From: Clostridia bacterium
Lineage (GTDB): Bacteria; Bacillota; Clostridia; Christensenellales; UBA1242
Direction of reading: 5' to 3'
Length of the DNA: 64,000 nt
NCBI GenBank assembly: GCA_045637805.1
Contig: JAZUAE010000012.1
Location: 135,532 to 199,531, forward strand
Shown: positions 19,479 to 63,700 of the stretch, piece by piece
Layout: every line of letters starts with the position of its first letter
Numbering within the stretch: the first letter of the stretch is position 1
Made by a program: the position numbers and the translations under genes
Notes under the pieces: generated by a model
Seen by the model: only the letters and a program-made list of their open reading frames with translations
Database searches by the model: none
Told to the model about the DNA's origin: nothing

Positions 19479-19635
19479 ATGAAGATTCCTTACGGACATG
19501 AAAGTTGCTAGTCGCAACATGGTTGACCCTTGGTAAATTTCTGCCTTTATGCAAACTGAAAGTTTGCACTTAATGGCGAGCGAATGTGAGCATCTTCATT
19601 AGTGTGGCGGCTTCATGTGTTTTAGCACTCTTAAT
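19479..19635. repeat. Heptamer-plus-hairpin mosaic repeat, ORF-less copy (both arms abutting)
   Basis: Left arm: ATGAAGA-ttccttacggac-ATGAAA-GTTGCtagtcGCAAC-ATGG-ttgacccttggtaa. Centre: GCAAACT-gaa-AGTTTGC. Right arm: ggcgagcgaatgtgagca-TCTTCAT-tagtgtggcggc-TTCAT-gtgttttagcac-TCTTAAT. The modules match those at 47206-47301 and 47714-47813 in reverse order. Confidence 0.8.
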
Positions 19636-34552: not shown

Positions 34553-34663
34553 ATTTGAGCGAAAATTATTTATAATTTTTACAACAAAAAAACAACAAAC
34601 AAAAAATCGGGGTCCCCGAAAAGTTTTTTGTAAAAAACTTTATGGGGAAAGGAAAAGCAGTGC

Positions 34664-34721: not shown

Positions 34722-34807
34722 TGGTGCCGGTAGTCGGGGTCGAACCGACATGAAGTTTCCCTCGGCAGATTTTGAGTCTGCTGCGTCTGCCATTCCGCCA
34801 CACCGGC
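34722..34807 (-). tRNA. tRNA-Leu (anticodon CAA), CCA encoded
   Basis: Reverse complement is GCCGGTGTGGCGGAATGGCAGACGCAGCAGACTCAAAATCTGCCGAGGGAAACTTCATGTCGGTTCGACCCCGACTACCGGCACCA. It has a 7-bp acceptor stem, anticodon loop CTCAAAA, a long variable arm and a GGTTCGA T-loop. Confidence 0.92.
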
Positions 34808-35351: not shown

Positions 35352-35437
35352 GCGAGGATGGCGGAATCGGTAGACGCGCTCGTTTAAGGGGCGAGTGGTT
35401 AACAGCCGTGAGAGTTCGAGTCTCTTTCCTCGCACCA
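35352..35437 (+). tRNA. tRNA-Leu, anticodon AAG by canonical hand fold, CCA encoded
   Basis: GCGAGGATGGCGGAATCGGTAGACGCGCTCGTTTAAGGGGCGAGTGGTTAACAGCCGTGAGAGTTCGAGTCTCTTTCCTCGCACCA. Acceptor GCGAGGA/TCCTCGC. Anticodon stem CTCGT/GCGAG leaves loop TTAAGGG (U33, A34-A35-G36, G37). Long variable arm and TTCGAGT T-loop. Confidence 0.85.
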
Positions 35438-35494: not shown

Positions 35495-35620
35495 TTCGCT
35501 CAGAACTCAGTTCGTAAGTGGCTCGCCTTTGGATCAAACCAAAGCTCACTTTACTCACTGACTGCGTTGTTCGCTTATTGTGTCCACCGGACACCGCTCA
35601 CATACTCGTCCTCGCACCAT
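35495..35620. repeat. Chain of short hairpins, possibly a degenerate relative of the heptamer-hairpin repeat
   Basis: Hairpins GAAC-TCA-GTTC, CTTTGG-ATCAAA-CCAAAG and GTCC-ACC-GGAC. Strings shared with the other loci are TAAGTG, GCTCGCC and CGCTCACA. It lacks ATGAAGA linkers. Confidence 0.3.
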
Positions 35621-43620: not shown

Positions 43621-46161
43621 ATGGCTAAACAAAACAAACTTATAATTGTTGATGGTAACAGTATTTTCTATAGATCATTTTACGCGCTTCCGCTCCTTAA
43701 AAATCCTAAGGGGCAGCCTTGTAATGCTATCTATGGTTTTTTTATTGAGCTGGTTAAAATTATTCAAAATTATCAGCCTACACATTTAGCAGTAGCTTTT
43801 GATAAATCTAGGTCTAAGCTTAGAAGTGATCTTTATAGCGAATATAAGGCAAACCGTAAGAAAGCTCCTGATGAACTTTTATCTCAATTAACACTTATTC
43901 GTGAATGCTTGGACGTTGCGGGCGTAAAACACTTTGCAATCGATGGCGTAGAGGGCGACGATGTTGTGGGCTCACTCGCACGTAGGTTTGAAAAGGAATG
44001 TGAAACATTTATTATTTCTTCTGACCGTGACCTCTTTCAGCTCATTAGCGAGCATACTAAAATGCTTTATGTAAAAAAGGGTATGAGTGATGTGCGTGAG
44101 CTTGACCCTAAGGCTCTGTGTGACCTTATGGGGTTTGCGCCTAGCCACGTCGTGGATATAAAAGCCCTTGCTGGAGATACTTCAGATAACATACCTGGCG
44201 TTGAAGGTATAGGTGAGAAGAGCGCTATTGAACTTGTTACGAAATATGGCTCAATAGAGAATATATTGTCGAACATTGACGAAATTAAGCCAAGGCAAAA
44301 AACTGCGCTACTTGGCAAGGAAGATGTTTGGCAGCTTTGCCGCAAACTGGCGACAATTTATACCGATGCGCCTTTGGGAGATGTTACTCTTAATGATTTG
44401 GTGTACACATATCCGTTTAATCAGGCAACGAAAGAAATGTTCACTGAGTTTGGGTTTAGAACGCTTATAAATAAGCCTGAAATTTTTGCAAGCGGAGATA
44501 GTAGCGTAGGGCTCGTGAATGTAAGTGTTGACGAAGTGCATGAGCGTAAGCTTGTAAACACAATGTCTGAGCTTGTCGCTGTGCTTTCTATTATAAAAAA
44601 AGAGGGCGAGTGTGCTGTTTATTTTGGAGACGAACTCGAAATTTTTGCAGGCGGAAACGCTTTCACTGTGAAAGTTGATTTTGACATGTATCGTGAGATC
44701 GCGTGCAAGGTGTTAAGTGATAAAAATATCCGCAAATTTGTGTTAGACAATCGCAAAGCACGTGAGTTTGTGCGTGACTTTTCTTGCGTCTTAGAGGGCG
44801 AAATCTTTGACTTCATGATTGCTGACCACTTGCGTTCGGGTAGGGTTATTAAGTCTGAGGAAGACGTTATAGCTAAACATTCGTCAAAGGACAGGATAAT
44901 CTTTGACCTTATTCCGCTTTGCCAAGATGCTGAAAAAGACCTTAAGGATAAAAACCTCTATGACCTTTATGTGAATGTTGAGCTTCCTCTTTCAGAAGTC
45001 TTGGACGATATGAGTGTTCAAGGGTTTAAGGTTAAGTGCGGCACTTTTGTTAAGCTTAATACCAAAGTTGACCGTGAGCTTGAAAGCCTTAGCAGGGAGA
45101 TTTGCAAGATGTGCGGCGTGGACTTTAATATTCGTTCACCAAAGCAGCTCGCTGATGTTTTATTTGGCAAGCTTGGTCTTCCAAATGGCAGCAAAGGCTC
45201 GACAAGTATTGATGTTCTCGAGTGGCTGGAAGATAAGCACCCAGTAATCCCGCTAATTATTCGTCATAGAAAGCTGGGTAAGTTTATGGGTACATATCTC
45301 GATGGCTTCCTTCCATATATTTCGGAGGACGGTTTTGTTCATACTATCTTTAATCAGACAATGACTAATACTGGTAGGCTTTCGTCTTCTGAGCCTAATC
45401 TGCAAAATATCCCAGTTAGGAGCGAGGATAGTCAGGAAATACGCGCGCTATTTTGTCCGAGAAGTCTGGATCATGTTTTAATCGATGCAGATTATTCGCA
45501 AATCGAGCTCAGACTTCTTGCTGCGTTTTCAGGTGATGAGCAAATGATTGATGCCTTTGCAAAGGGTAGGGATATTCACACCGAAACAGCATCTAGCGTT
45601 TTTGGTGTAAAGCCTGAGCTTGTTACTAGTCAAATGCGTAGAATAGCAAAGGTTGTAAACTTTGGTATTATTTATGGAATTAGCGGTTTTGGCTTGGCTC
45701 AGGACCTTAAGATTACTCCAAAACAAGCAAAAGCATATATCGATTCTTTCTTTGAACTTCATCCAAAAGTTAAAGAGTATATGGATAAAGTAATATCTGA
45801 TGCAAAATCTACAGGTAAGGTTTATACCATGCTTGGCAGGTTCCGCAATATTGACGCTGAAATTAATTCACATAATTTTATCATACGTAGTGGTGCAGAG
45901 CGCGCTGCTCAAAATATGCCGCTTCAGGGCTCTGCCGCAGATATTATAAAGATGGCTATGATTAATGTTTATAAGCGCTTAAGGCGTGAAAAACTTGAGG
46001 CAAAACTTATTTGCCAAGTGCATGATGAACTAGTTATAGATGCTCCAAAATCTGAAGAGGAAAAAGTAAAGAAACTTTTGAAAGAGGAAATGGAGAATGT
46101 TGTAAGCCTAGCCGTGCCATTAGAAGTGGAAGTGTCGTCGGGGTCCCTTTGGCAACATTAA
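43621..46161 (+). CDS. polA: DNA polymerase I
   Basis: 5'-nuclease domain (LIIVDGNS, GDTSDNIPGVEGIGEKSA). Polymerase motifs DYSQIELRLLA, RRIAKVVNFGIIYG and QVHDELV. Start at ATG 43621. Confidence 0.93.
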   Translation: MAKQNKLIIVDGNSIFYRSFYALPLLKNPKGQPCNAIYGFFIELVKIIQNYQPTHLAVAFDKSRSKLRSDLYSEYKANRKKAPDELLSQLTLIRECLDVAGVKHFAIDGVEGDDVVGSLARRFEKECETFIISSDRDLFQLISEHTKMLYVKKGMSDVRELDPKALCDLMGFAPSHVVDIKALAGDTSDNIPGVEGIGEKSAIELVTKYGSIENILSNIDEIKPRQKTALLGKEDVWQLCRKLATIYTDAPLGDVTLNDLVYTYPFNQATKEMFTEFGFRTLINKPEIFASGDSSVGLVNVSVDEVHERKLVNTMSELVAVLSIIKKEGECAVYFGDELEIFAGGNAFTVKVDFDMYREIACKVLSDKNIRKFVLDNRKAREFVRDFSCVLEGEIFDFMIADHLRSGRVIKSEEDVIAKHSSKDRIIFDLIPLCQDAEKDLKDKNLYDLYVNVELPLSEVLDDMSVQGFKVKCGTFVKLNTKVDRELESLSREICKMCGVDFNIRSPKQLADVLFGKLGLPNGSKGSTSIDVLEWLEDKHPVIPLIIRHRKLGKFMGTYLDGFLPYISEDGFVHTIFNQTMTNTGRLSSSEPNLQNIPVRSEDSQEIRALFCPRSLDHVLIDADYSQIELRLLAAFSGDEQMIDAFAKGRDIHTETASSVFGVKPELVTSQMRRIAKVVNFGIIYGISGFGLAQDLKITPKQAKAYIDSFFELHPKVKEYMDKVISDAKSTGKVYTMLGRFRNIDAEINSHNFIIRSGAERAAQNMPLQGSAADIIKMAMINVYKRLRREKLEAKLICQVHDELVIDAPKSEEEKVKKLLKEEMENVVSLAVPLEVEVSSGSLWQH

Positions 46162-46163
46162 TT

Positions 46164-46289
46164 AATCGGGGCAACAATTCATCATTTTAGTGCAGAAAAT
46201 CAAAAAAATCCAAACAGTCTTTTACGATTAGTAAACTCCTGTTTGGATTTTTTATTTTCTTTCTAAAATACTAAATTCTTGCCCCGATT
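46164..46289. mobile_element. 126-bp element bounded by 16-bp inverted repeats (MITE-like), enclosing a terminator
   Basis: AATCGGGGCAAcAATT at 46164-46179 and its complement ending at 46289 match at 15/16, with an 11-bp perfect core. The left end starts 3 nt after the polA stop. Confidence 0.4.
46204..46258. terminator. Terminator with conserved hairpin tip
   Basis: 14-bp outer stem AAAAATCCAAACAG/CTGTTTGGATTTTT, inner stem TTTAC/GTAAA, loop GATTA. Core TTTACGATTAGTAAACT at 46221-46237. Confidence 0.75.
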
Positions 46290-46317
46290 GAAATAAACAT
46301 CAATCTTACAGTGTTGC

Positions 46318-46797
46318 CTAGTAAATGTTTATTAGTGACGTGTGTGTTGATTCTGCATAATAGTAGGCTTGTTTGGTAATCTCTTCAGGTGAAAGGGGAT
46401 TTGAAACACTGTCTATTTTATAATTTAGTGGTGCATAAATGTATTCATTATAATTAAAGATACAAAAATCGCTTGAATCTATTACTTTTTTATCAAGTTC
46501 GAAATTTTGTATCAATTTATCATCTAACATAAATTTTTCTTCCAACTCTAAGCTGTTAAAAGTCTTAGAGTTTTCTTTTGTCAAAAAAGCAATTCGTTTA
46601 ATGTAAGGAAAGGTTTGTTTTAACTTTGATATACAGTTGTATGCTAATTTTTCAAAAGGACTATAGCTATAGAAAATAAAAGTTTTATAATTATCAAAGT
46701 ATATTAGTGGCAATAAGAATTTTTCCAGTTTGTCTTGTAATTGTTTTTCATTTTCTAAGGTGGCGTATCCTATAAAAGAGCAAGTATTTGTATTCAT
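46318..46797 (-). CDS. Hypothetical protein (159 aa), possibly a second degenerate SLOG/DUF1273-like protein
   Basis: AAGGAG RBS. The N-terminal CSFIGY...KTFIFYS layout loosely resembles the CFTGHR...start of 15742..16248. TAG stop. Confidence 0.6.
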   Translation of the reverse strand: MNTNTCSFIGYATLENEKQLQDKLEKFLLPLIYFDNYKTFIFYSYSPFEKLAYNCISKLKQTFPYIKRIAFLTKENSKTFNSLELEEKFMLDDKLIQNFELDKKVIDSSDFCIFNYNEYIYAPLNYKIDSVSNPLSPEEITKQAYYYAESTHTSLINIY

Positions 46798-46849
46798 TTT
46801 TTACTCCTTTTCATCTCATATTATTTTTGCATAATCGAAAACAAAAGTC

Positions 46850-46908
46850 AAGGATATATCCCTGAATATTTCCAAGTGCAAATGATACACTAAAATAAAG
46901 GATATATC
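46850..46908. promoter_or_regulatory. Two copies of AAGGATATATC (palindromic core GATATATC): candidate operators in the divergent promoter region
   Basis: Exact 11-mers at 46850-46860 and 46898-46908, 48 bp apart, between the divergent 159-aa gene and the XRE regulator gene. Confidence 0.5.
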
Positions 46909-46920
46909 GTGGGGTGAAAA

Positions 46921-47160
46921 ATGAAAGTTACTGATGCAATTACACATAGAATAATTAATTTATGTAAGGAAAGGGAAATTACACCAAACAAACTTGGCAC
47001 AATTTCAGGAGTAGAGCCAAGCACAATTACCAGTATATTTTATGGAAAAAGTAAAAATCCAGGAATCGTGACAATAAAAAATTTGTGTGATGGTTTTGGT
47101 ATATCATTATCAGACTTTTTCAATGATGAGATTTTTAAAGATAAAAACCTAGAAGAGTAA
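46921..47160 (+). CDS. XRE-family helix-turn-helix transcriptional regulator
   Basis: 79 aa. The pattern ...REITPNKLGTISGVEPSTITSIFYGKSKNP.IVTIKNLCDGFGISLSDFF is typical of Cro/C1-type HTH proteins. Confidence 0.85.
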   Translation: MKVTDAITHRIINLCKEREITPNKLGTISGVEPSTITSIFYGKSKNPGIVTIKNLCDGFGISLSDFFNDEIFKDKNLEE

Positions 47161-47205
47161 AAAAGTTTCCGGTAGGTACTTTTTTGTATATAAATATAGG
47201 TAATA

Positions 47206-47301
47206 ATGAAGACGCTCACAGATGTTCGCTATGAAGCCGCTACGCTAATGACGAGGCTCAATTCTTTCGCCATGAAGAGCAAACTGAAAGTTTGCATGAA
47301 G
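47206..47301 (+). repeat. Heptamer-plus-hairpin mosaic repeat, 5' arm (ATGAAGA orientation)
   Basis: ATGAAG(A) at 47206, 47231, 47272 and 47296, with a truncated ATGA at 47248. The heptamers are separated by 11-20 nt segments. The last segment is the perfect hairpin GCAAACT-GAA-AGTTTGC (47279-47295). Confidence 0.85.
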
Positions 47302-47348
47302 TCAAGAAAATTATACCATTTAAAAATTCAAAAGGATAAATAAAATAA

Positions 47349-47651
47349 ATGTTAACAAAAGAAAATAAATTACTACAATTATCAAAAGAATTTGCTATTG
47401 ATGTTATTGAATGACAAAAACAATTAAAGAATAAAAATGAAAATATCATATCTAATCAAATAGGAAGAAGTGGCACAAGTATTGGTGCAAATATTAGTGA
47501 AGCACAATATGCTCAAGGGAAGGCTGATTTTGTTTCAAAATTAAAGATAGCTTTAAAAGAGTGTAATGAAACTTTATACTGGTTAGATCTTGGGCTAAAC
47601 ACAAAATATATAGATGAAAAAGTTTATGAAACTTTAAATAAAAATGTTTAA
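47349..47651 (+). pseudogene. Four-helix-bundle protein (23S rRNA IVS protein / Avd family) with in-frame TGA at codon 22 and short C-terminus
   Basis: Translation is MLTKENKLLQLSKEFAIDVIE*QKQLKNKNENIISNQIGRSGTSIGANISEAQYAQGKADFVSKLKIALKECNETLYWLDLGLNTKYIDEKVYETLNKNV. RSGTSIGANI.EA and KADF..KL.IALKE..ET.YWL are the family signatures. TGA is at 47412-47414. Confidence 0.8.
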
Positions 47652-47713
47652 ATATTAGGGTTTTGCTGATAAAATCTTGTAAAACCGCTCAAAATTAAAA
47701 TAACTTTTTAAAG

Positions 47714-47813
47714 TTACCGTAAGGTCAATAGTGTTGCGTCTAGCAACTCTTCATGTCCGATAGGACTCTTCATGCGCGTTAGCGTTCTTCATGTATCGTC
47801 AGATATTCTTCAT
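47714..47813 (+). repeat. Heptamer-plus-hairpin mosaic repeat, 3' arm (TCTTCAT orientation)
   Basis: Hairpins TTACC-GTAA-GGTCAA, GTTGC-GTCTA-GCAAC, GTCC-GATA-GGAC, GCGC-GTTA-GCGT and GTATC-GTCA-GATAT. The last four are each followed by exact TCTTCAT (47748, 47767, 47786, 47807). Confidence 0.85.
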
Positions 47814-47828
47814 TAACATTTAGACATT

Positions 47829-47857
47829 AAAAAAGAGAGCAATTAGCTCTCTTTTTT
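47829..47857. terminator. Bidirectional terminator (stem AGAGAGC/GCTCTCT)
   Basis: A6, AGAGAGC-AATTA-GCTCTCT, T6. The terminator at 49721-49750 uses the same stem. Confidence 0.8.
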
Positions 47858-47880
47858 ATAAATGATGATGTTGACTTAAT

Positions 47881-48750
47881 TTAACGCTTATTAGAAGTAT
47901 AAACTAACCCAACAGCGCCAGGTCCGCAGTGTGTGCCGATTACCGGTCCGATGGTCAGGCGTTTTATTTCAACCTTGCCGTCAACAACTGGTGCGATTAA
48001 GTTTTCAATCATGTCGGCTACTGGTTTGTTTTCAGCGTCTATTATGTAGATAGGGCAGGTAGATTCCTTTATATAGTTATCTGCAAAGTTCTTAGCGATG
48101 ATGCTTGCAGCTTTTTTAGTACCGTTACCAGCAGCTATTTTAACAATCTTACCCTCGTCAGACACGTGAAGGATAGGTTTTATGTTTAAAAGTCCGCCGA
48201 TTACAGCTGCTGCTGCAGAAAGACGGCCACCACGCTTTAAATGGGTTAAGCTGTCTACCATAAACTGGCAGGCAACTGTTGGAGCAAACTCTTCGCAGAA
48301 TGCTAAAAGTTCTTCGTCTGTTGCACCTGCTGCTTTCTTTTTAGCAGCCTCAAGTACAACCAAACCACCACCAACGCAAATACTCTTTGTATTAAATGTA
48401 ATAACTTTTCTTTCTGGATATTTTTGTTTAAGCTCGTCAAGGGCAAGTTTCATGTAATTAAATGTACCTGATAACTGGTCAGAAAAGTGAATATAGAATA
48501 TATCTTCGCCAGCTTTGAAAATAGGTTCAAAATAGTTTACATAGTCTGCAGGGTTAAGAGCAGCAGTTAGTGGCATTGAACCTTCACGTACTCTTTTATA
48601 GAAGTGGGCAATAGCCTCTTCATCTTTACCCATATCATAAACCTTTTCCTCGCCATCTAGAATGTAAGGCATGCCAAGCACATGAATGCCATATTTCTCA
48701 ACATCTCTCCAGTCCATTTCGCAATCTGTATCTGTAAATAAAACGCTCAT
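47881..48750 (-). CDS. DegV family fatty-acid-binding protein
   Basis: 289 aa. N-terminal LFTDTDCEM, and C-terminal GPVIGTHCGPGAVGLVY typical of DegV. AAGGAG RBS. Confidence 0.85.
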   Translation of the reverse strand: MSVLFTDTDCEMDWRDVEKYGIHVLGMPYILDGEEKVYDMGKDEEAIAHFYKRVREGSMPLTAALNPADYVNYFEPIFKAGEDIFYIHFSDQLSGTFNYMKLALDELKQKYPERKVITFNTKSICVGGGLVVLEAAKKKAAGATDEELLAFCEEFAPTVACQFMVDSLTHLKRGGRLSAAAAVIGGLLNIKPILHVSDEGKIVKIAAGNGTKKAASIIAKNFADNYIKESTCPIYIIDAENKPVADMIENLIAPVVDGKVEIKRLTIGPVIGTHCGPGAVGLVYTSNKR

Positions 48751-48879
48751 TAGTATAAACTCCTTTTTTCAACAAATTAATATTGTTTGTAGATTTATTA
48801 TATAACTTTTTAATTCTTTTGGCAAATCTTTTCTACAGTTATTTATTAAATGTTGAACATTTTATTTTGCGTTTGCATC

Positions 48880-48908
48880 TTGAAAAAGAAGTTGGTGTGT
48901 GTTATAAT
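48880..48908 (+). promoter_or_regulatory. Sigma-70 type promoter (TTGAAA-17-TATAAT)
   Basis: -35 at 48880-48885 and perfect -10 at 48903-48908. The ATG at 48918 is only 9 nt downstream, with no SD. Confidence 0.6.
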
Positions 48909-48917
48909 GTAAGTGTT

Positions 48918-49700
48918 ATGGAAAATTTGAATTTGAACAAAAGAAAATTTAAACTCTATAATGACAATGCGGAATACGCAGGTGAGGCTATGCGTAACTT
49001 TCTTGATTTGTACAGAGGATCGCTTGGCAACAACATTAATAATTGTATTTCACAGATTGAACATACTCATAAAAATGATATGTATGAAATGCTAATCTTT
49101 TTTAAAGACGGCTTGTTTGACGAGTATGGTGCGTTTGCCGTGCCATCAGTTGATTTGAATAAAAACCTTAGCGATGATGAGATTAAAAAAATTGCATACT
49201 CAACGCCTTGTTTTGATAAAATGGCCAAGTTAAATGGTTGGATAGTTGACACGTCGGGCAATATTTATCCTGCGAAAAATCACCCTAATTTTATCAATTT
49301 TTTAACCTTGTTTGGGGTTGATTGTTCATCGTTTATAAGGGTAACTAATGCGCCTATCGGGCTTGCTCCGCTTAATTTTTCAAGTGCATCGCATTATATT
49401 GATGTAGAGAGGAGTGAAGTTTTAACAAAAGAGCAAGTTTTAGCTCTTTATAATTTGAAAAGAATATACGAATTAAGATTTGAAAACTGTGCATTAAGAC
49501 TTCAAGATTATATACTAGACTCAATGCTTGGTGGTTACTTGCATGAAAACGGTGATTTGTATAATATGGACAATTTAAAAACCATACAAAAGTATTGTCC
49601 TGAAAATTTTAGCGCAAACGAAACATATAAAAACTTTTTGTATTACTCAAAGCATAAAGAGAGTTATGAGGAGGACTTTGGCGCCGAGCTTAGAATATAG
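48918..49700 (+). CDS. Hypothetical protein (260 aa), probably leaderless or near-leaderless
   Basis: Start moved from 48783 to ATG 48918 (MENLNLNKRKF...) because the consensus promoter lies inside the upstream extension. TAG stop, followed by a terminator. Confidence 0.6.
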   Translation: MENLNLNKRKFKLYNDNAEYAGEAMRNFLDLYRGSLGNNINNCISQIEHTHKNDMYEMLIFFKDGLFDEYGAFAVPSVDLNKNLSDDEIKKIAYSTPCFDKMAKLNGWIVDTSGNIYPAKNHPNFINFLTLFGVDCSSFIRVTNAPIGLAPLNFSSASHYIDVERSEVLTKEQVLALYNLKRIYELRFENCALRLQDYILDSMLGGYLHENGDLYNMDNLKTIQKYCPENFSANETYKNFLYYSKHKESYEEDFGAELRI

Positions 49701-49720: not shown

Positions 49721-49750
49721 AAAAAAAGAGAGCGATAAGCTCTCTTTTTT
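49721..49750. terminator. Bidirectional terminator (stem AGAGAGC/GCTCTCT)
   Basis: A7, AGAGAGC-GATAA-GCTCTCT, T6. Confidence 0.8.
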
Positions 49751-49766
49751 AGATATAAATATATTA

Positions 49767-49840
49767 ATGAAGAGTCCTAACGGACATAAAGAGCGATGTT
49801 TCGCGCTCTCTACCGAACCGCGTGCGAATATTCACCGCAT
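49767..49840. repeat. Heptamer-plus-hairpin mosaic repeat, partial single-arm copy
   Basis: ATGAAGA-GTCCtaacGGAC-ATAAAGA-GCGatgtttCGC..., then GC-rich hairpin-prone sequence up to the stop of the 601-aa gene. The first module is near-identical to 47755-47773 (reverse complement) and 19479-19503. Confidence 0.7.
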
Positions 49841-51770: not shown

Positions 51771-54700
51771 TTACATAAAGATATTTCTAAATGGAGAGTT
51801 GTTTGGCAATTTGTTAATGAGGTTATCAATAAGAGCTATAGTATAGACTGCAACGCCAGCTACTGAAAGGGCTAAGAGAACTGTACCGATTACTGTTGTT
51901 GCAAGACCAGCAGTGAAGTAGGTTAATAAACCAACACCAACAGCTGTAACTGTTGCGATACCAATAATTCCAGCAGGAATTTCGTCCCAGTCACGGTCTT
52001 GGTAGTAGATTCTTTGGGTATCGTCGAGTGATATTTGAAGATGAGTAATATCTTTACCGATCGATCCTCCAAATGCATTCTTTTCAGGAGTTGTTGATGT
52101 GAACGCTAGGGTTTCAGCCTCTACTTGTGGACCTTGTTTTAATGAAAGTATATTAATAGCTTCTTGTATTGTCATTTCATTGCTTTGAGAAGAACTATTA
52201 AGTGCAGATGTACTTTTTGCATCGTGTGTTCCAAGAACACTTGTTATTGTGAAACCACAATTTGTAAGAGTTTTATAATATTTATAACCCTTGTCAGCCC
52301 ACCAAACAATTCTAGGTAAAATCCATGTCTTTTCCGAAACTGATAAATTTGTCTGTTCAGCGTTATGGACTGTTACGTAACTATCAAACCTGATTGTATC
52401 ACCAAAGTTGTAGTTGGTTGCAATAAGGTCAGCAAAGTTAGACGATTGATAATTTTTTACATTTCCACTTGTATAAATGTCACTATTTAAGTATTCCATG
52501 TATTTTCCTACGTTAATAGTTTTGTACTCGAAGAAATTGTTTAAATCATCATAACCTTTAAAGTTTGTATCAAACAATATGTTAATAAGTCTATCTATGT
52601 TTAGGAAACGTTTAATGCTTACATCGCCACCATGATCAAGTATATCTGTAATGTTAACATATCCAGTTGAAAGTATGTTGTTTTGTATGTCTTCATTTAT
52701 ATCAACTGAAGATAAGATATTGATCAGTTGAACAATGAATGTGTAAGCTGCAGCATATAAGTTGTTTCTTTGTTCTGATCCATTAAATCCAACACCCCAA
52801 ACAATATTTCTTTTAAGTTCTTCCGCAAAAGATCTTTCGTTTTCTAGGAAAGCATCTACATGATTTTTAGGAGTATCAGCAGGGTTAGGGAAGTATGTGT
52901 CAAGCATAGCGTTTAGTCTTGAAAGATAAGTTTCAGTACCCTTAATGATTGTTACATACATTCCTGAAAAGTTGTTTGTAAATTGTTTATATGCATTTCT
53001 AAAAGTATCCTGATCTTTATATAACTCTCCAAGATAGGTTACTGTTTTCGCATTTTTGCCTTCCCAGTATTTATTGTGGCAATCAGCTTTTGGATAATTA
53101 TTATTATCTGGTTCACCACCGATATCAGTAAACTTTAAATCGACGATTTGCGCGTTATACATGAAGTTTGCCTTAATATTAAGGTTTATGTTAGATGGCA
53201 TAGGGTCGGTGTCTTGTCGGTTGATGTAGAAGCCACTAATTTGATTACTTGATGTTGAGGTTGGCATATTTGTGCTGAGAATGTTTTTACCAGAGTATAA
53301 GTCGTAAGCATAGCTGTCGTTTTTAGTGTAATCTACAGCAGAAACATTGAATGAATGCGCCGTTACAACATTGTCTTGGATAAGGCTATTTTTTGTACCC
53401 ATTTGAACGTTTACAACAGGGAACGCTCCATTTTCGTTTTGTACGAAAAGTTTGATGGTGATAGTCTTATTATCAAAGTCTATGTCTAAGCGTACTCTTT
53501 TCTTTACGTCGTTATAATATGTGTTGATATCTTCTGGTGTTGAACCGAAAGATATGTTGATTAAGCCTTCAATTAATGAGTAGCCTTCATCTTTAATGCG
53601 ATCATTGTTATCAACCTTTTCAATGTAATCGTTAATATGGGTAAGCGTTGTGTTTGAGTAGTAAGACATTATAGTGTATATCTGAATATTTTTGTTGTTT
53701 TCAGGATTGTATATTTCACTTAGTCCGTCGAAATCCGTCTCATCTTCAATAGGAGTGTATTTGATATAGTAGTTAGAACCACTGGCATGTACAAGATAAC
53801 CGCCATCGTACATATATCTAAAGTAAGGATCTGAACCGTCAGATATGCCATTTACGTAAACAGGTTCATTATTTTTATAAATGAGGTGACCGGTTGCTTT
53901 TGATTTTGCAAGGTCGATGAGGTTAAGACCGATTTTTGTAAAGTATGGTAGCTTATGTCCTGAGTCATCAACGTTTGTATATACATAAGGTGAAAGTGAA
54001 TTTACGTCTTCCTCTTTATTAATCTTGTGAACTTCCTCTGTGAATACAATTTCAGTTGAAGATTCTCCTTTGTCGGTAAGAGTTGTTACACCTAAGATTT
54101 CAGCAAGTTTAATATTAATTACAAGAGACTCAGACAGATAGAACGCGTTGATGGTTATATCTTCTGTAACTGCATAAACCTTAAGGTTGTTTCTGCTCGA
54201 AAGCTGAGATTCAACTGCGTTAATTTGCATTGTCTTGTTGTAAAGACGGTTTTCGGTATCACCGGTAATTGCTTGTGGGTTATAGATGCTATACGATTTT
54301 GTCGTAGCCTTTAAGCCGTCGTAGTCTATGTTCATTTGATTTTTATACGATGATATATCTGCATCAAGGTCTGAACCGTTGTTAAATTGTATATCGCTAC
54401 CTGTCCAAGAAAGAACTTGTGATGAAAGTGCTGTGTTTGTATCAACCCAAGCTGTATTTGTGGTTTTATAACCTGTCCAACCAACGATCTTAAATCCAGG
54501 GTAGTTGATTGATGCAAACATTGCGTTACTGTTAGCTTCAACTAAAAGGTTACCAGTAACTGAACCAAGATCTGAGTTGTGAACTGAGTAATCTGTTGGC
54601 TCAATAACGATTTGTTGATCTTCTTCATCAAGAATAGGAGATTCTCCATCTAATGCAACAGAGGCTTCAACATTGTTAACTGTAATCTTGAATGTTTTAG

Positions 54701-57700
54701 CTTCATATAGAGCAAAAATTAATGTATCTGCAGAAATTGTTGCATCAGCTGTGTAGTAATTACCAGATATATTGTAGTTTGAACCTATTTTAATCAAACT
54801 CATGAGTGAGTTTAATGGAGAAGTAGGCTCAGACACTGCATCTATATAATGGTTCAACACTTCCTTGTTTGAAAGGTTAGTCGTAACATTTGAAAGTGGA
54901 CTAACGTATGCACTTGTAACGGAATAGAAACCTTTGAAGAAATAATTATCTTTAATCTCAGCTTTGAGTGTAACAGATGTATCCTTTGCAATTATTACGC
55001 CAGAATTATTAAGACCTGTGTACTTGTTAAAGATATAATCAGTTGTCTTATTACTTGAAGCAGATGTTGAAACTTCTGCTTTTTGATCAGAAGATAGTGC
55101 TGCATCTTCTTGAACACCTATATCAGTAGTTTGATTCTTATCGGCAAGTGATAGAATATATGTATCTTTAGTTTTCCATGAATTGTTAATTAATTCATAT
55201 AAATATTTATTGCGAAGTGCAACAAATTCCTCGCCGCCATCAGCTTTAGTACTGTCATATAGATTCTTCAACTGATTTATTATTACGTCGATTCCGGTTG
55301 AGAAGTAGTTGACATTGATTATTTTTGAAAGTAATGCGTAATCTATTCCAAGTTCAATATTAAATTTTGTTTGGATAGGTGTGTTATAAGTTTCGATATC
55401 GATAGCTTTTACGTCACGAATCATTTTTGATATATATTCTTCTTGTGCTCCAGTTGGGAATTCCGTTATCAAAATAGCACTGAGTGGATTTTTATCCAGT
55501 AGAGGATATGTATCAAACGAGAAGTTGTCTTTAGAGTATGTGCTTCCTTCAATCATATAGCCAAGACCATGAAGCGCTGAAAGAACTATAACAAATTTGT
55601 TTTGAGGAATTGATTCATGATAGTTGAATGTAATAGCTGTATCTGCATTTGCTGTAAATACATGAGTAAGTGTTTGAGCAAGTATAGTTTTGCCATCACT
55701 GTCTAATGTGTTTTGTATCGTATTAAATGCGGTAATATCAGACAATGATTTGTTAACTTTCTTGGTTGCAGATAGTATATATGGGATAGAATCATTATTC
55801 TTACGTGTGTACGTAGAACTTACACGAACGAGAAGGTGAGGCTCTACATAAGCACCAGTTGTAGAAATTTGTTGCCATGAGCTGTTATAGTAAACTTCAA
55901 GTTTTTGTGTATAATCACCATCATAAGTTGTAGTATTAGTGCTTTTAACTACATTAACGCTTGGAGTAACTAGTTTTATTGTCTGAATTTGAATTGTTGA
56001 GTCAACTAAGAAATTTTCAGTATTGATTGAAATAGAATTGTCGTATTTATTTGTGTTTAAAATTTCTAATGTTTTAGCATTAACAAAGTTCGTTATGCGG
56101 TAGTGGTTATACTCATAAACAGATGCTCCGCTTAAAATGTCTGTTGTTTCTATAAAATCACATGGGGTAATAGTGAATTCAGAGTATCTACCAACAGGAT
56201 AAACAATAGTTTTGTTAGAGCCTTTTAATTGATAAGTATAATTATTCTCGCTTTCGATATACGAAACTTGTGTATCTGCGCTCAACTTATAGTTATAACG
56301 ATTATTTTCTGTTGATTTTTGTTCATAGTCTTTATTGTTTATGTAGATATCATTATCGAAATCTATTGAAATTGTACGAGTATTGATTGTTAGATGTGCG
56401 TATAATGAATATCTGTAACCCGATTGACTTCCAACTGTTGATCCCGCATGAATGCCATCTGAAAGGGTAACGCGGCTGCTTGTTGTAAATATTCCTTTAG
56501 ATAAATCACGAGAATTTGAATAACCATTCATTGTGAATGAGTTGTTTACGGCATAAATCTCAAGTGCGTGAGCATCTGATAGGTGACAATAAACACTTTT
56601 GAATGTTATTTCTGTTGAAGTAAATTCTGTAATTTCAAGTTCTTCAGTGCTTCCGTCAGGGTAAACTATTCGAGCTTTAATTAAAGAATTGATGTCTGTA
56701 TTAAACTCTTTAATATCTGCTATAGCATAGATTTGATAAACGATATACCTTGAGTGGTTAATCATAACCTGATGAATTGATGAGTTTGAAGTTGTAGGAT
56801 TGAATATTATTTCATCTACAGCTCCAACAATATTAAACGTCATATCAAATTTGTCGTTGTTGTAAGAAACATTTACGAAAGAGTCTCTTGCTATCTTTAA
56901 GAAGTCATCATCTGATTTACTAGATAAAGCTAATATTACACTCTTCAAATCAGATTCGTAGAAGTCACCAGATTTAAGTGAACTTATATAAGGATCAGAA
57001 TTTGATTCACCTGTCCAGTTAGCGGTATCAGTGTTTGAATCAGCGTCATACATATAATATGTGTAAGTATCTTCATCAAGGGTGTAATCGTTAGGATCAA
57101 TACCATTAATGTAAAGTGATACAAGTTTAACATAATATGGTTTGATTTGAACGTCATATTTTGCAAGAAGCTCATTACTTATAGTTATCTTTATTGCCTT
57201 AATTGCATAGCCATCGCTTGTAGGTAATAATGATGGATACTTTGTTACTATAATAGATGTAGGTGCAACGTCTGTTATTCCATAAGATTCGCCTTTTGAT
57301 GTCTCTGTGAAACTTTGATTAAGTATCTGGAAGTCACTATCAACGCCATTAACCTTAATCATTACGTGACTGATTGCGTAGCCATCAATGCTTGAAATGT
57401 TAACAACGTTGCGGTCAAGTTCTGTTACACCAAAGCCGAATGTGTCTTCTTGGTTTTCAACAATAACTTGATGTTCAATTCCAACAGTTGCAACAATATC
57501 TTTTGAATCAAAGTTTAAAGCATAGAACTGATAAGCTGGGGTTTTGTTAGATCCAGGAATTTCAATATTATTCACTGTGTATGACATGTGCATATCAATC
57601 TTGTTTCGGTTTAGAAGGTAGATTGTGATAAGTTCGCCGTGTTTAGCAGTAAACTTAGCAGTATCATTTGTTTCCTTTGTAAAGTTGAATGATTGAATCT

Positions 57701-60700
57701 CTTTTCCACTGTATATGTCGTTAACTATTACAACGTATTCAACATCAGACTCTTCATTACCTTCAACTTTGAATGTAAATTCGTATTCGTCTCTAGTTGT
57801 TGATTCCTTTATGATAGATGATATGTCTACAACTTTTGTTATGGTGCTTGAGTAGTTACCATTAGAAACTTTGTAAGTAATGAGATAACCAACTTGTACT
57901 GTTTCAAATGAGTGGGCAACATCTGTTATAGCTATTTCACCGACTTCGTCAAGTGTCATGTCGTTGACATCACCTTTTTGAGCAAATCCATTAATTACGC
58001 TACCAGTAAAATTATAACTTGTGCCAGCTAATACTTTAAAGTGATAGCTGTTATCATTATATGCAGATGATAGGAAGTTGCCTAATGCGCTTTGAACATA
58101 TGATGATGCTATGTTACCAGTTATGTTGTATGTATTTAGGTCAAGTGTGCCATCGAGTGTAACGTTATATGTGATATCAACTAATTTAACAAACCTTGCA
58201 ACCTTGTGGATAATACCATTAGATATTGCGCTGTTGTAATTATTTGAAATCTTGATGTAAGAAGATCCTGTCTCCTTAATTTCAGCATACCAACCGATGA
58301 ATAGGTAAGTATTGCCGTTATAAGTTACTGTCGGAATTGACGCATCAAGCATTGTAAGAGCTGATTTGTTAACCTTTGTAAAGGTTGAGCCATTGTCAGA
58401 AATTTCAAAGCTTTCAGATTTCTCATAAGTGTCTGGAGCTGCTGTCTTGTCATACTTAGCAATTGTTGCTATGTTTTTCTCAACTGTGAATGAAAAACTG
58501 TTTGAATATGAGTACACAGAGATAGAACTTGATGGTTGTTCATTATTGTAAATATAGAAACCTTGGAAATTATAGTTTACATTAACCTGATTATTAATGT
58601 TATCTTCTGTTTTTCTTATATTGATCTCAGTGCCGTAAGGAACACTTGTTGTGTAAGAAAGGACAGATGATTCAGGTTTATACAGTGTAAGAGGTATAGT
58701 AGCATTGAAAGTTTCTGAATAAGGATATTTGAAAGCAATAAGCAATGTTTGGTTTAGGTCGTCGGCATAATCATTGCCTCCGATGAGATCTATAACTGAA
58801 TCGGCATAGTTACTATTTTCAACAGCTAAACGAATATCTATGTTGAAGTTTTTAACAAATCTTGCTTCTATAACAAGGTGATTTGCTGCATTGAATGTAT
58901 AATCAACATTTGCAATATTGCTATAGCTACCAAATTTATATTCGCCGTTAATAAAGTAACCTACGAATGTGTATCCTGTATTAACATATACTTCTGGAAG
59001 TGTAATACTTGTACCGATATCGCTTACAGTGAATATTGTTTTTTCAGGGGTGCTAATTGTACCACCGATTGCATTGCTTTCAGCCTCGCCATTGATTGTT
59101 CTAGTAACGTATGAAATGTTGTATTTTGTAGCATATTTAGCAGTAACTTTTGCGGTGTTTAAATAGTAAGATGTTCCTGAAAGGGTATAGTTAAAATCAG
59201 ATGAAACAAATTCGTCATTTACATACCAACCGAGGAATATATGTGTCTTAATGTTGTCCGCAACTAACATTAAATCAATATTTTTTCTTATTATAAACTG
59301 TTTGCTTTCATAATTATCAAGACTAATAGAATTAATTTCACTGAAAATGCCTTGCTTTGAATCTGTTGCTGGATCAATGTAATCGTGAACAAAAGAACCA
59401 AGTGCTTTAACTGTTAGGCTTGAGTTGTTTGAAAGTTCGCCATCAACTTCACGAATTACAGTTACGACATTTGTTTCAAGGAACTTAGCAACAATCATCA
59501 ATTTTTTAGTTTCGTTAGTCATGTCTTTTGTGATTGTAAAACCTTCGTTAGATGAAACAAACTTGCCGTTTACATACCAACCAGCAAATGTTAATTTGCT
59601 AGACTTTTCAATCATTGTTATAGTTGGCTCGATTGTTTTAGGGTAAGCAATTTCTTCAGCATATGAAAATGTTTTTTCAAATGATCCATCGAAATGGAAT
59701 TTAAATATATATGCATTTGTTGGTTGACCGTCAACCTCAGGTATGAAGTTAACAACAATTGCGCCTGTAATTCTGATTAATATATTAGTAGAGTCGCTTG
59801 ATTGCTCTATAAAATATTGATCAGCATAAGGTGTATCTATATATTTAGTAACAATAGGTTCTTTTGCAGAATAGAATGTGAATGAGTTTTTATACACATT
59901 ACCTGTAAGACCTTTAGTAAACAATTCATTGCTTAAAGTTACAGTTTTGTTGTGTCCGTATATATCCACATAGGCGATATGGATTTGGAACGTATTTTTC
60001 ATATCGTCTAAAGTATCGCCATCGTTTAAGAACACTTCAGTATTGTATGTGTATTGTTTGTATTTATTATATTCAAACAATAAATCAACAGTTTTTCCAG
60101 CATTTTGACTGATTGCTGGTACTTGATAGTTAAAGTTAGTGTCGGTAGAAATTAGTGTGCCGTTAGCCTTCATTCCAGTAAAGGCGTAACTAAACAGTGT
60201 TGTAGTTACATATTTGCTAGGAACATCAATGTTTATAACAGTGCCTGCAGGAACTTTAAATGAGTCCCTTAGTATTATATGTTCAACTTCTGAACCATAC
60301 TGATTTTTGTATCTAAAGTATAATGATTGTAAGTATAAATAATAATTATCACTAGGTACTTGTTGGCTAACGTTTATTGTAATGTATGGAACATAACATA
60401 TTTTAATATCCATGTCGCCAGTAACAGTTGCTTCATATGAACCATCTGATGGGATATTTTCTTGCTCTCCGTTAACAAATATTTTAACAGGGATTAAGCC
60501 GTTTATTTCAGTTGTTAAATTTCTAATCGTGAATTCATCACCGATTTCTAGTGAGTCTATAGAAAATGTCGATACTTTTGGTGATGACGGTTGCAATATA
60601 GCCAAATGGTAACCATCGAAATTAAAATATGCTTTAAACGCTTTTGGTTTTCCTTGGAGTTCAACACTGTCATATTCTAATAATTGAATATTTGCTTTAT

Positions 60701-63700
60701 AGACTATAGTGTAATTAATAACAATATTGTTTATATCTTTATCAAAGTAATTACTATTGATACGAAGAGTGAGGTCGTCAATGTTGTCAATTTTTTGTTG
60801 ATTAACTGTTATGCTATCTACTTCGAATGAGTCTTGAGTTGTTATTTCTATGTTAAGACTTGTGCCGCTCATTATATAAGTTTTATTATTATAGTTAACA
60901 ACGTTGTTACAAGAATCATTAACTGATAAGTTGTATTTGCTTTGTGAGATATCATAAGAACCAGCTCCTTCAAAGCCTTCAGCATTTGTGAGAGTAATTT
61001 CTTTTATGAGTACAAATTGCGCTGTAACATTTGAAAATCTGATTTGTGAAGCTTGAATTGTAAATATTGTTTCACTAGATAGACAAATATAATCAGTGAA
61101 CCAACCCATGAATGCATACAATTTTCCATCATGTTCAATTATTGTATTGTCAATGGAGAATGTAATTTTTGTTTCGTCATCAAAAGCGAACACAGAACTA
61201 TAATTAATACTTGCATACCCATTCATAGCCCCAAGACCTTCACCAGTTGTGCCAACGTATTGACCATTATATGTTAGGTTTATTATATTCTCAAAAGTTG
61301 TATCACTACTTATTATAGGTGAAGCATTTGATGTGCTCACTGATTCATAGAGTGATGTATCAACTGTTATTTCTACTATTGCAGGGATATGAGCTTTAAT
61401 ATGATAGAGCATATTATCTGCACTTAGATTGTATTCGTTATTAATTTTATTATCTTCGTACAAGAACTTGATAGGGAATGGGTTAGCATGAACATTATAA
61501 AATACATCATTTTCGTCCTTAAAACCTTCAGATGTTGTTTTTGCACTATTGTTGATATAGTAATTTTCAAGCTTATCATTTAATCCTGAATTTACGATTT
61601 CAAGGTCAGATCTTTCTCTATCAAAGTAGCCATAGATGTGTAGGTCAAGACCTTTGAGCTCTGCAGTGAGGAGCGCGTTAGTATCATCTTTTGCGAATTT
61701 AATAAACGATCCAACAGTAGCGTCTAAGTTGCTAGAAATAGATCCATTAGTCGCAAAGTAGTTGCCAAGAGTAAAGTTTGCACCATTATGATAATTCTTA
61801 CCATTTTCTATTTTATAGAATCCGGCTACTTCAAAGTAGAAGAGTAGGATAGGTTTAACGTCATCAAACTCGAGAGAAATTGCGTTATTTGGAATGTCAA
61901 GCACGCCGTTTTCGTTTTTGTCTTCACCGTCGTCAAGCTTGCCGTTTCTATTTAAATCTTCATTCACTACGAATAAGAATTGACCCATGTCGATTGTGAA
62001 TGTGTTGGTGTCATTTAACACAACATCTGCGCATTTTATTGCGTCGCCGAGGTAGTTTCTAACGTTTGTGGTTAAAATAGTATCAGTTATCTGTTTTTCA
62101 CCGTTTGTACCTGTAAGTTTAATGTTGTCATTGCTTAGACTGAATCTATATCCGCCGTTTGGTGTTACAGTGATGTCAATATCTTGGTCGATGAATACTT
62201 TACCAGTAATTGTTGTAATATTATCAACTGTAGTATATGTGAACGATTTACCATCATATTGATATGAATGAATAATAACGTCCATCATAGTGTTGTCGAA
62301 CTTGAATTCGAAGTCTCTTATTCTCTTGAATAGGGCAATGATACTTGTGTCGGCATTAGAGTGAGTTACATAAGGAAGGGTGAGATCACTGCTCATAAGC
62401 TCATAATCTGTCCACTTTCTTGAGATTGCACCATACTCATCAATAACTTCTTCACATTTAGCTTCATACCAGCCAAGGAATGCAACGTCGTCTGGAAGTG
62501 TAAAGCCTTCAAACCCTTTAAGTAAGAGCATTGTGCTTTCTACTATTGAAAGGTCTTGTGTTTGATAAGAATTTACAGATTCATTATTTTTAGGTATGTA
62601 TATCGGCATTTGGAACTCTTTATAGAAGTTCATTGTAGTTGAGCCCGCAATGTCGGTATAAACAATAGGGTCAACGAGAGTTGTTTCAGTGTCAACTGCG
62701 TTCATGAACAAATATCCGAGCATACCGCCATCAGCATATATGGTTGATGAAAACTCTGGAATGCTATCTGTATTGTAAATAAGTGAACCATTAGCGTTTA
62801 CGCCATCGATAAGCATTGATTGTATGTTGAATGTGTAGATTACAAGTCCAGAAAGGTTGAAGTAGTTAACAATGCCTGACATGAATGGGCCAACGCCTTT
62901 TGCTAAATAAGACTTTGTTTCATCATAACCATTCTTAGCGAAGTTTGCATATTTGATTATTGTCTTTATTGATTCAAATATTTGATCCATGTCGGTTGTT
63001 ATCTCGGTAATTTTACCACCAAATAAATCAAATAAGAATTCACCATTTTGATCAGCATATACATCTTTTGTTGTAACGCCGCCAACAAAGAATGCAAATT
63101 CATCTTTAACGGCTCTGTTCAGCTCAACCATAATATTTGTGAATTCTTCGCTGTTTGCAGATTTCTTTTGTGCTTTAATGTAGCTTCCTTCACTAATTCT
63201 CGTATTTCCTGATTCAGGACTTAAAATATCTTTTACATCCGCCCAGTTTTTCAAGCTGAAGAGTTTTGTTGTTGAATTATAGTTAATATAATTTGTTAAC
63301 AATACACCTTCATTATCATATAAGTTGAAGAATTTTTGGTAGAAGTCATAGTCACGACCGGCTAGAATGTCACCAACGAGTGACATAGCACGGTATGGGT
63401 GACGGATAAGATGAGCATTGTCGTTTTCAGAAGTGTCTGCATTTCTATCAAAAGTTATCTTGAATATATAATAGAAATAGTCAACTTGTTCGACGCCATC
63501 GCCCTGTTGATTTTGAGTATGTAAATCAATATAACTTTCTTCAGGCTCTAGGATAGGGGTTACGTTGTATGCAGTTGAGCCAAGGCCGAGAGTATGTATC
63601 GCTAGGCTGTAACCACGTTTTACTTTAACAACATAGATTGTGGTTGTGTTAACATCAAAGAAGAAATCAGTGTTTGTTAATAATGAATTATCTTGATCTT

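Follow-up and report, generated by a model that had tools for sequence, protein, structure and literature searches.

A decayed PF05635 gene lies between complementary heptamer arrays

We analyzed a 64-kb window of the Clostridia bacterium contig JAZUAE010000012.1 (hereafter "the window", meaning this whole stretch of AT-rich DNA, 35% G+C), in which positions 47206-47813 hold a degenerate open reading frame (ORF) of the PF05635 family, the family encoded in intervening sequences (IVSs) of 23S rRNA, enclosed by two arrays of a short repeated word and its complement. The locus apparently represents a decayed copy within a family of selfish cassettes of the IVS type, which consist of a PF05635 gene and of modular inverted heptamer arrays serving as cis-acting ends. 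Support for this comes from the recurrence of the architecture across many phyla, the complementarity of the arms, the presence of ORF-less and one-armed derivatives, shuffled modules, the absence of the element from the corresponding sites of close relatives, and the adjacency of such cassettes to stable-RNA genes.

The 5' arm (47206-47302, plus strand) consists of five ATGAAGA-like heptamers separated by segments of 10-18 nt: ATGAAGA (47206-47212), ATGAAGC (47231-47237), ATGACGA (47248-47254), ATGAAGA (47272-47278) and ATGAAGT (47296-47302). The original prediction, made from the letters of this DNA, had described five ATGAAG(A) heptamers at this place; the number held, and one of the five, ATGACGA, departs from that word. 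Only the last segment forms a true hairpin, the predicted perfect GCAAACT-GAA-AGTTTGC (47279-47295, plus strand) at the inner end of the arm. This hairpin recurs at 19551-19567, and in the related locus L024 (L-numbers label the loci of relatives in the present analysis) the unit's first hairpin, CCAAACT-GAA-AGTTTGG, is similar to it. The 5' arm as such is homologous to the 5' arm of the intact relatives L216 and L217 and to positions 19561-19616 of an ORF-less ("mini") copy in the window. Read in element orientation, the loop of the GCAAACT hairpin is GAA in the main copy and TTC in the mini copy.

The 3' arm (47714-47813, plus strand) begins with a weak ACC-GTAA-GGT stem of 3 bp, followed by four modules in which a different hairpin with a 4-5-bp stem precedes an exact TCTTCAT. 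The hairpins are GTTGC-GTCTA-GCAAC (47733-47747), GTCC-GATA-GGAC (47755-47766), GCGC-GTTA-GCGT (47774-47785) and (G)TATC-GTCA-GATA(T) (47793-47806), with loops that are all of the G..A type (GTCTA, GATA, GTTA, GTCA), and the heptamers (plus strand) start at 47748, 47767, 47786 and 47807, at spacings of 19, 19 and 21 nt. Five hairpins had been claimed for this arm; the last four, each with its heptamer, are as described, whereas the first is the 3-bp stem. Counting both strands, TCTTCAT occurred 30 times in the window compared to 14.4 +/- 3.2 times in shuffles, and six of the 30 lay within the main locus. Only six hexamers reached four copies per ~110 nt; TCTTCA, CTTCAT and ATGAAG were among them, and the other three were unrelated. 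Heptamer-plus-hairpin arrays were absent from all five shuffles of the window.

Between the arms, at 47350-47698 on the plus strand, lies a PF05635/TIGR02436 four-helix-bundle ("23S rRNA IVS protein") pseudogene identified by profile matches. When repaired at its stop codon and frameshift, the ORF scored 95.1 bits against PF05635 (cut-off 33.8 bits) and 98.6 bits against TIGR02436 (cut-off 24 bits), which bears out its predicted place in the Avd/23S-IVS family, although as a pseudogene. Its nearest solved relative is PDB 2RLD (E=3e-31), deposited with five chains, and its translation contains the RxxxSxxxNxxE helix motif (RSGTSIGANISE) described in PMC3936711. The first lesion is an in-frame TGA at 47413-47415; the second is a frameshift near 47641-47650, after which the last 18 codons (KCLNIRVLLIKSCKTAQN) run in another frame and end at 47698. 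In the closest relative, L011 (Candidatus Onthoplasma, Christensenellales), this region likewise contains a frameshift, independent of the one in the window. Since the other long ORFs of the window are normal with translation table 11, since there is a second lesion, and since L011 is frameshifted independently, we rejected recoding of TGA; judged by its sequence, the window copy is a pseudogene that probably no longer functions as a gene. No convincing promoter was found between the 5' arm and the ORF's ATG with a consensus promoter/terminator scanner, which misses A/T-extended terminators, so that the latter were read from the sequence instead.

Intact homologues encode proteins of ~115 aa, four-helix bundles related to Avd. 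In intact relatives the PF05635 stop codon overlaps, as ATGA, the start of a downstream ORF (L001 1851-2045, L005 1851-2225, L211 10351-10683, L213 10351-10836). This ORF varies by locus (64-161 aa) and gave no significant Pfam match, apart from one weak pyrophosphatase-like one, and no PADLOC match; the overlap suggests translational coupling to variable cargo. A defense system was rejected as a candidate, as neither the protein nor five variable downstream ORFs had a PADLOC match.

Inverted arrays accompany PF05635 genes in many genomes

We assembled 90 related loci (87 distinct), namely 10 reached via two gut-metagenome homologues and 80 species-level loci from GTDB genomes. Under a looser criterion, at least two exact hexamers in each arm, inverted arrays of a lineage-specific 6-10-mer were present beside or around the PF05635 gene in 52 of the 87 distinct loci, compared to 2 of 87 shuffles and 1 of 51 distant flanks; under the strict criterion, arrays were detected in 22 of the 90 loci. 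Further copies, whose existence the original prediction had made a test of itself, do occur, in the window itself as well as in numerous other genomes. The arrays had a period of ~17-27 nt and 3-5 modules per arm (mode 4). Five is therefore no fixed number, and the proposed match between five heptamers and a pentameric protein falls with this. The enclosed or adjacent gene belonged to PF05635 in every locus and was in none an HUH (Y1) transposase gene.

About a dozen heptamer families were distinguished, and although the word varied by lineage, the arms were complementary in every case. The repeated words included ATGTAATC (the commonest), GTATGT, ATGGAA, GCATGG, ATGATGT, ATGAAG and GTGAAG, as well as GCGAAAT (Akkermansia), the 10-mer GATTCAATCC, GAAGCAC and others. 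Between lineages the identity of the heptamer, whose conservation the original prediction had asked of further copies, thus changes, whereas the complementarity of the arms and, through compensatory changes, the geometry of the hairpins are kept. In Bacteroidota and Oscillibacter, plain tandem heptamers without hairpins flanked the ORF, for example (AGTCACT)n, and in L027 TAGGAAT and ATTCCTA flanked an ORF placed, operon-like, between two closely spaced same-strand genes.

The ORF was enclosed by the arms in the window, L014, L043, L023, L027, L028 and L030. In most Clostridia, both arms lay upstream of the ORF as a unit of 150-200 nt, which began 0-2 nt past the T-run of an intrinsic terminator and ended at the ORF's TTGAxx-17-TATAxT promoter. 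Class A units (such as L047 1742-1942 and L049 1744-1947) had CCAATCC-GAA-GGATTGG as their first hairpin and CAATCC-TTCG-GGATTG at the apex; the two were reverse complements and enclosed the first arm as a 17-nt inverted repeat. ORF-less units with other heptamers occurred in L013, L042 and L211, and modules were combined in a mosaic manner among L047, L056, L062 and L049.

Homologues of ~70% identity were abundant in gut metagenomes, and one word-limited search returned more than 7,000 cluster-representative relatives of ~40-70% identity. The family is called functionally uncharacterised (PMC11270868) and has been noted inside cas operons (PMC3936711), as well as within insertions in rRNA. 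Across 35 related loci only tRNA, tmRNA (transfer-messenger RNA) and 5S rRNA reached the Rfam gathering score, and our literature search returned no description of repeat arrays beside PF05635 genes or of their adjacency to tRNA genes; within these searches, the repeat family is undescribed, as had been supposed.

Other collections contributed little. Scanning metagenomes for TCTTCATN{10,16}TCTTCATN{10,16}TCTTCAT gave no window-like unit among the 120 matches listed, which were coding sequences and tandem repeats. A tblastn search against phage records gave two unannotated metagenomic matches, IMG/VR gave four loci, and in a scan for GATTACAT arrays one of 53 matches was a true unit, the others being plain tandem repeats. 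A phage origin was rejected, as the cassettes are essentially absent from viral collections. The GATTACAT scan also brought up tandem 13-nt repeats, GATTACATGTTGT, at the ends of 100-kb-class viral contigs (L235, L244, L249, L276; IMG/VR), which are unrelated to the units. A CRISPR array was likewise rejected: the constant word is 7-10 nt long, the "spacers" are palindromes of 10-18 nt, and the arrays are inverted.

Related cassettes lie behind stable-RNA genes

A same-strand tRNA gene ended 170-460 nt upstream in 64 of the 90 loci, which corresponds to 55 of the 80 species-level loci, and many different tRNAs were represented. Two further loci followed tmRNA, one followed 5S rRNA and one a truncated tRNA; altogether, at least 59 of the 80 species-level loci lay directly downstream of a same-strand tRNA, tmRNA or 5S gene. 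One and the same block of terminator, unit and ORF stood behind different tRNAs (L047 and L062 versus L049), and the block therefore travels as a whole.

In L024, L062, L047 and L032 copies of the tRNA 3' end, directly repeated and 20-54 nt long, stood on either side of the cassette of 0.7-1.9 kb (1774-1793/2510-2529 in L024, 1698-1722/2701-2725 in L062, 250-303/2183-2236 in L032). Shorter intervals separated the direct repeats of L049 (1541-1564/1688-1711) and L089 (1522-1542/1713-1733). The repeats started in the T-loop or the anticodon loop, as is typical of integrase att sites. A tRNA 3' fragment was present between tRNA and unit in L018, L049, L077 and L089, and in L049 and L089 part of the tRNA T-arm was present once more in inverted orientation. 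No integrase was found in or near the cassettes, nor within 10 kb of those in L211 and L213. The copies in the window neither adjoin a tRNA nor have a direct repeat of the tRNA type.

ORF-less copies and turnover in close relatives

Sensitive blastn and alignments identified three related loci in the window, to which this count refers: the main locus, a copy without the ORF (19479-19635) and a copy with a single arm (49767-49810). The original prediction had counted four, and when the window was scanned by hairpin density for another one, only tRNA-Leu flanks came up. The mini copy (minus strand) lies in a convergent intergenic gap, with 19616-19561 corresponding to the 5' arm and 19519-19479 to the 3' arm; when the two copies are aligned, the ORF segment of the main locus (47303-47709) falls exactly at the apex. 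The one-armed copy comprises, on the minus strand, an AGAGCG..CGCTCT hairpin with TCTTTAT followed by GTCC-GTTA-GGAC with TCTTCAT, and is placed between the stop codon of a 601-aa gene and the terminator.

The element downstream of DegV was not found in relatives whose DegV is 85-89% identical. Similarly, the array of the one-armed site was missing from L220 and L224, which are 85-88% identical, while L222 was too diverged to judge; in L220 and L224 the stop codon runs almost directly into the terminator, where the window has ~95 extra nt.

The flanks of the main locus are protein-coding, an XRE-type gene on one side and the convergent DegV gene (47881-48750, minus strand) on the other. The latter is parted from the 3' arm by a perfect 13-bp A/T-flanked hairpin, TAAAAAAGAGAGC-AATTA-GCTCTCTTTTTTA (47828-47858), which resembles an intrinsic terminator on both strands; a near-identical terminator-like hairpin stands beside the one-armed copy at ~49726-49750. 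Throughout the window each arm adjoins a gene end, for most with a terminator-like hairpin intervening. Rfam found no rRNA at 46000-49000, even at E<=10, and nothing else of relevance there; the original prediction had placed the locus in an ordinary convergent intergenic gap. A 45-aa ORF (47206-47343), with three ATGs in frame, traverses the 5' arm.

Some neighboring features are recorded here as observations in their own right. The DegV-PolA interval is a variable hotspot (window 46161-47881, L220 10871-12754, L222 10871-11366, L224 10871-11148), which in relatives contains a short-chain dehydrogenase/reductase gene, a 164-aa ORF and a helix-turn-helix gene, or only direct repeats of ~100 nt, or a 91-aa ORF; in the first of these versions the XRE/159-aa pair has the opposite orientation to that in the window. 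A 16-nt direct repeat, AAAGTTTCCGGTAGGT (47162-47177) and AAAGTTACCGTAAGGT (47710-47725), 81% identical, encloses the 5' arm and the ORF, and may be due to chance or be a trace of the placement of the ORF segment between the arms. A hairpin-rich insertion of ~115 nt (35506-35620; GAACTCAGTTC, CTTTGGATCAAACCAAAG, GTGTCCACCGGACAC) follows tRNA-Leu (35352-35437, plus strand) and its terminator, and a paralogous stretch without that insertion (34556-34590; aaatttataaataattttcgctca plus terminator) lies beside a second tRNA-Leu (34722-34807, minus strand); the insertion belongs to a different repeat family, unrelated in sequence to the heptamer arrays. Three ORFs of the window are very large, 4048 aa (51771-63917, minus strand), 2295 aa (23750-30637, plus strand) and 1559 aa (138-4817, plus strand), and the first of them is conserved in relatives, where it adjoins an SH3-domain gene.

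The arrays are predicted to fold back

In the minimum-energy fold of 671 nt around the locus (-151 kcal/mol, z=-4.3) the arms were paired over a long range, 47197-47300 with 47733-47820, and in a fold of the arms only all four nested heptamer pairs formed. The nested pairing of AUGAAGA with UCUUCAU that had been proposed is thus recovered in both folds. A hairpin branching from each strand at every rung, the second part of that proposal, fails here because only the last segment of the 5' arm is a real hairpin; furthermore, zipping across the arms melts three of the four 3' hairpins, and the window copy is therefore an interrupted stem, not a clean ladder. Of the likeness to an IVS with its ORF in the loop, the pairing of the termini stands for this copy, whereas the layout is that of a minority among relatives. 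Nested heptamer helices were also present in the minimum-energy folds of L047, L034, L037 and L063, and in these better-preserved units the predicted fold is a ladder. Among 15 aligned sequences of the ATGTAA family, pairing within the side hairpins was preserved, with double compensatory changes in 5-7 of the 15, and the RNAalifold consensus contained a long-range 11-bp helix between the arm motifs.

We favor, at a probability of roughly 0.45, the reading that the arrays form a single-stranded fold-back recognized by an oligomeric protein and/or host enzymes, with hairpins at the DNA level. The arrays would then be the modular terminal inverted repeats of the element, whose heptamers would pair across the arms while the hairpins extrude, and the PF05635 protein, as an oligomer, and/or enzymes of the host would read the resulting fold-back. 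Since the hairpin modules behave like DNA palindromes, they would act at the level of DNA, when the cassette recombines or moves. Where the arms are co-transcribed around the ORF, as at the window locus and in rRNA IVSs, they would form a long stem that RNase III could cut, thereby freeing the insert from the host transcript.

Apart from one clade, discussed below, the features of the modules are those expected of DNA palindromes read on either strand. Among 142 module hairpins there were only two internal G.T and two A.C pairs, whereas the adjacent terminators have G.U on the sense strand; an early asymmetry of 19 G.T versus 3 A.C on the sense strand was withdrawn as evidence for RNA, because the terminators and not the modules had produced it. 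The loops were mostly GNA triloops and GNNA tetraloops, without a preference for purine at the third loop position. Moreover, loop class was mirror-imaged between the arms of the ATGTAA family, with G..A in a ratio of 22:1 in one arm and T..C in a ratio of 24:1 in the other (Fisher p=3e-10 overall), and the GTATG family had the same pattern. Kissing loops between the arms were rejected (5 complementary loop pairs versus 10.6 expected), and so was helical phasing on double-stranded DNA, as the spacing modes of the two arms differed (20 versus 23 nt) over a range of 17-27.

Several observations weigh against a DNA fold-back in a selfish cassette. The sense strand folded more stably than the antisense strand in 33 of 44 units, by a mean of -2.5 kcal/mol (Wilcoxon p=6e-4, which is optimistic because the unit sequences are related), and G.U pairs numbered 174 on the sense and 110 on the antisense strand of these units; this modeled stability would point to a sense-strand molecule, possibly RNA. 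The polarity of the loops is reversed in the ATGATG/ATGAAG/GTGAAG clade, which includes the window, and no simple DNA model predicts this. No transposase or integrase was found inside any cassette, and the PF05635 family is not known to have catalytic activity. A target-site duplication could not be defined in the window, because the intergenic DNA of the relatives is too diverged. Finally, the set was hardly enlarged by a pattern scan of metagenomes and two scans of viral contigs, and the 64 kb yielded no more than three copies.

Alternative explanations for the arrays

A doubtful but serious alternative is that a structured sense RNA is the functional form of all copies. The arms would pair within one transcript as a ladder of 7-10-bp helices with side hairpins, serving as an RNase III processing stem, as in the rRNA IVSs, and/or as a docking platform for the pentameric protein. 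The sense-strand bias in stability and G.U content suits this explanation, as do the nested pairing in the minimum-energy fold and the 11-bp RNAalifold helix. In addition, the orientation of the units is fixed relative to strongly transcribed stable-RNA genes, relatives inserted in operons (L027) must transcribe their arms, and Avd, a member of the PF05635 family, is an RNA-binding partner of a reverse transcriptase. For rRNA IVSs, pairing of the arms and excision by RNase III are established (PMC4990558). However, in most relatives the unit follows a strong intrinsic terminator and precedes the ORF's promoter, and therefore the ORF is not bracketed and the unit is not on the ORF mRNA. The stems of the modules are almost without G.U, though the neighboring terminators use it; the loops are mainly triloops, and those of four nucleotides are of the GNNA and not of the GNRA type. 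Furthermore, the loop classes are reverse complements between the arms with no loop-loop complementarity, variant heptamers by inspection do not covary with their nested partners, and no Rfam family matches. The position between terminator and promoter, together with the DNA-like hairpins, therefore leaves a single sense-RNA ladder only partly supported.

Improbable in our view is a role as a boundary or insulator acting on double-stranded DNA or on transcription, in which terminator, array and promoter would insulate the cassette from the adjacent stable-RNA gene and vice versa. They might do this by terminating transcription from both sides as a fail-safe, by buffering supercoils in the manner of REP/BIME elements, or by providing operator- or iteron-like sites for autoregulation by the PF05635 protein. 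The constant position of the unit, immediately past the terminator T-run and directly before the promoter, is as such a role would have it; so is the occurrence of the same terminator, unit and ORF block behind different tRNAs, and dyad symmetry would suit traffic from both sides. The arms in the window, too, adjoin gene ends, most of them across a terminator-like hairpin. Yet palindromes of variable sequence would be meaningless to a protein that binds double-stranded DNA, the spacing is unphased (modes 20 and 23 nt, range 17-27), the module hairpins are not followed by U-tracts, the enclosing layouts and the operon insertions of plain tandem heptamers do not fit, and ORF-less copies have no promoter to insulate.

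Chance, low complexity, coding periodicity or the remnant of a coding repeat, for which the AT-richness of the window and the 45-aa ORF through the 5' arm might speak, is refuted: four exact heptamers at 19-21-nt spacing with a complementary array never arose in shuffles, and the same design was present in 52 of 87 independent loci versus 2 of 87 controls. The probability that these readings leave over belongs to mechanisms we have not thought of.

Implications

We did not find described elsewhere the inverted arrays of lineage-specific heptamers, often with variable hairpins, that bound PF05635 genes, the Clostridia cassettes directly behind stable-RNA genes, or the ORF-less derivatives. These three regularities tie the puzzle of ORF-bearing rRNA intervening sequences to the broader biology of selfish elements. 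PF05635/TIGR02436 is a huge family without a known function outside the Avd proteins of diversity-generating retroelements, and the heptamer/hairpin modules, as DNA or as RNA, provide a concrete candidate ligand for its protein. The three regularities may also explain PF05635 genes within unrelated operons such as cas loci (PMC3936711).

A bolder proposal, which we regard as unlikely, is that PF05635 cassettes are an unrecognized class of mobile element that lacks a transposase or integrase of its own, homes to stable-RNA genes, and has ends assembled on the pentameric protein. The homing sites would lie inside rRNA for the IVSs and just behind tRNA, tmRNA and 5S genes for the others, and the protein would be a factor for mobility or maintenance. 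If true, a very large orphan family would thereby gain its first function, and the origin of rRNA intervening sequences would be explained. In one variant of this proposal, a polymerase that adds repeats might make the ends, since the presence of the same repeat on both 3'-ending strands is a telomere-like geometry.

Comparison with known systems

The nearest parallel is the 23S rRNA IVS of Leptospira and Coxiella burnetii. Like the element studied here, it measures ~0.4-0.7 kb and has a PF05635 ("S23p") ORF between terminal inverted repeats; in both, these repeats can pair into a long stem that leaves the ORF in its loop. Both count as selfish, and in both the ORF is prone to decay. The Coxiella IVS has a 28-bp stem, is excised by RNase III and has an ORF under reductive evolution, and excision by RNase III is known for the IVSs of Coxiella, Leptospira and Salmonella (PMC4990558). 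In contrast, the window element lies outside an rRNA gene, between protein-coding genes, and its arms are repeated heptamers with variable hairpins instead of the plain stem by which IVSs are described; furthermore, there are ORF-less and one-armed copies, and in most relatives the arms are upstream of the ORF behind tRNA, tmRNA or 5S genes.

REP/REPIN-RAYT systems likewise have modules made of a conserved word and a palindrome, inverted pairs flanking one small gene, ORF-less intergenic copies by terminators, and a repeat type that tracks the clade of the protein. Here, however, the protein is a four-helix bundle and not an HUH/Y1 transposase, the linker word is constant while the palindromes vary, which is the inverse of REP, and there are three copies in 64 kb. 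As for elements with terminal inverted repeats and their miniature derivatives, inverted arms, an internally deleted copy and differences in presence or absence were all seen, whereas no transposase was found.

To integrase-less tRNA islands and the Xer-dependent "dif modules" the relatives are linked by their location precisely at tRNA or tmRNA 3' ends, in some of them with direct repeats of 20-54 nt as boundaries, and by their make-up as cassettes of 1-3 genes without a recombinase of their own, bounded by repeated short sites. They differ in that the window copies have no tRNA or direct repeats, in that the heptamers are unlike dif, and in that one relative lies behind 5S rRNA, which is not a classical att site. 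Compared to tRNA elements with a tyrosine integrase, the repeats are there in L024, L062, L047 and L032 but the integrase is not.

Avd of the diversity-generating retroelements differs in its surroundings, as neither a reverse transcriptase nor a template/variable repeat was near the loci inspected for gene content (ORFs of the window were not domain-scanned). On the other hand, it belongs to the same superfamily, it is a pentameric four-helix bundle, and it acts on structured nucleic acid that adjoins its own gene (PMC10053308).

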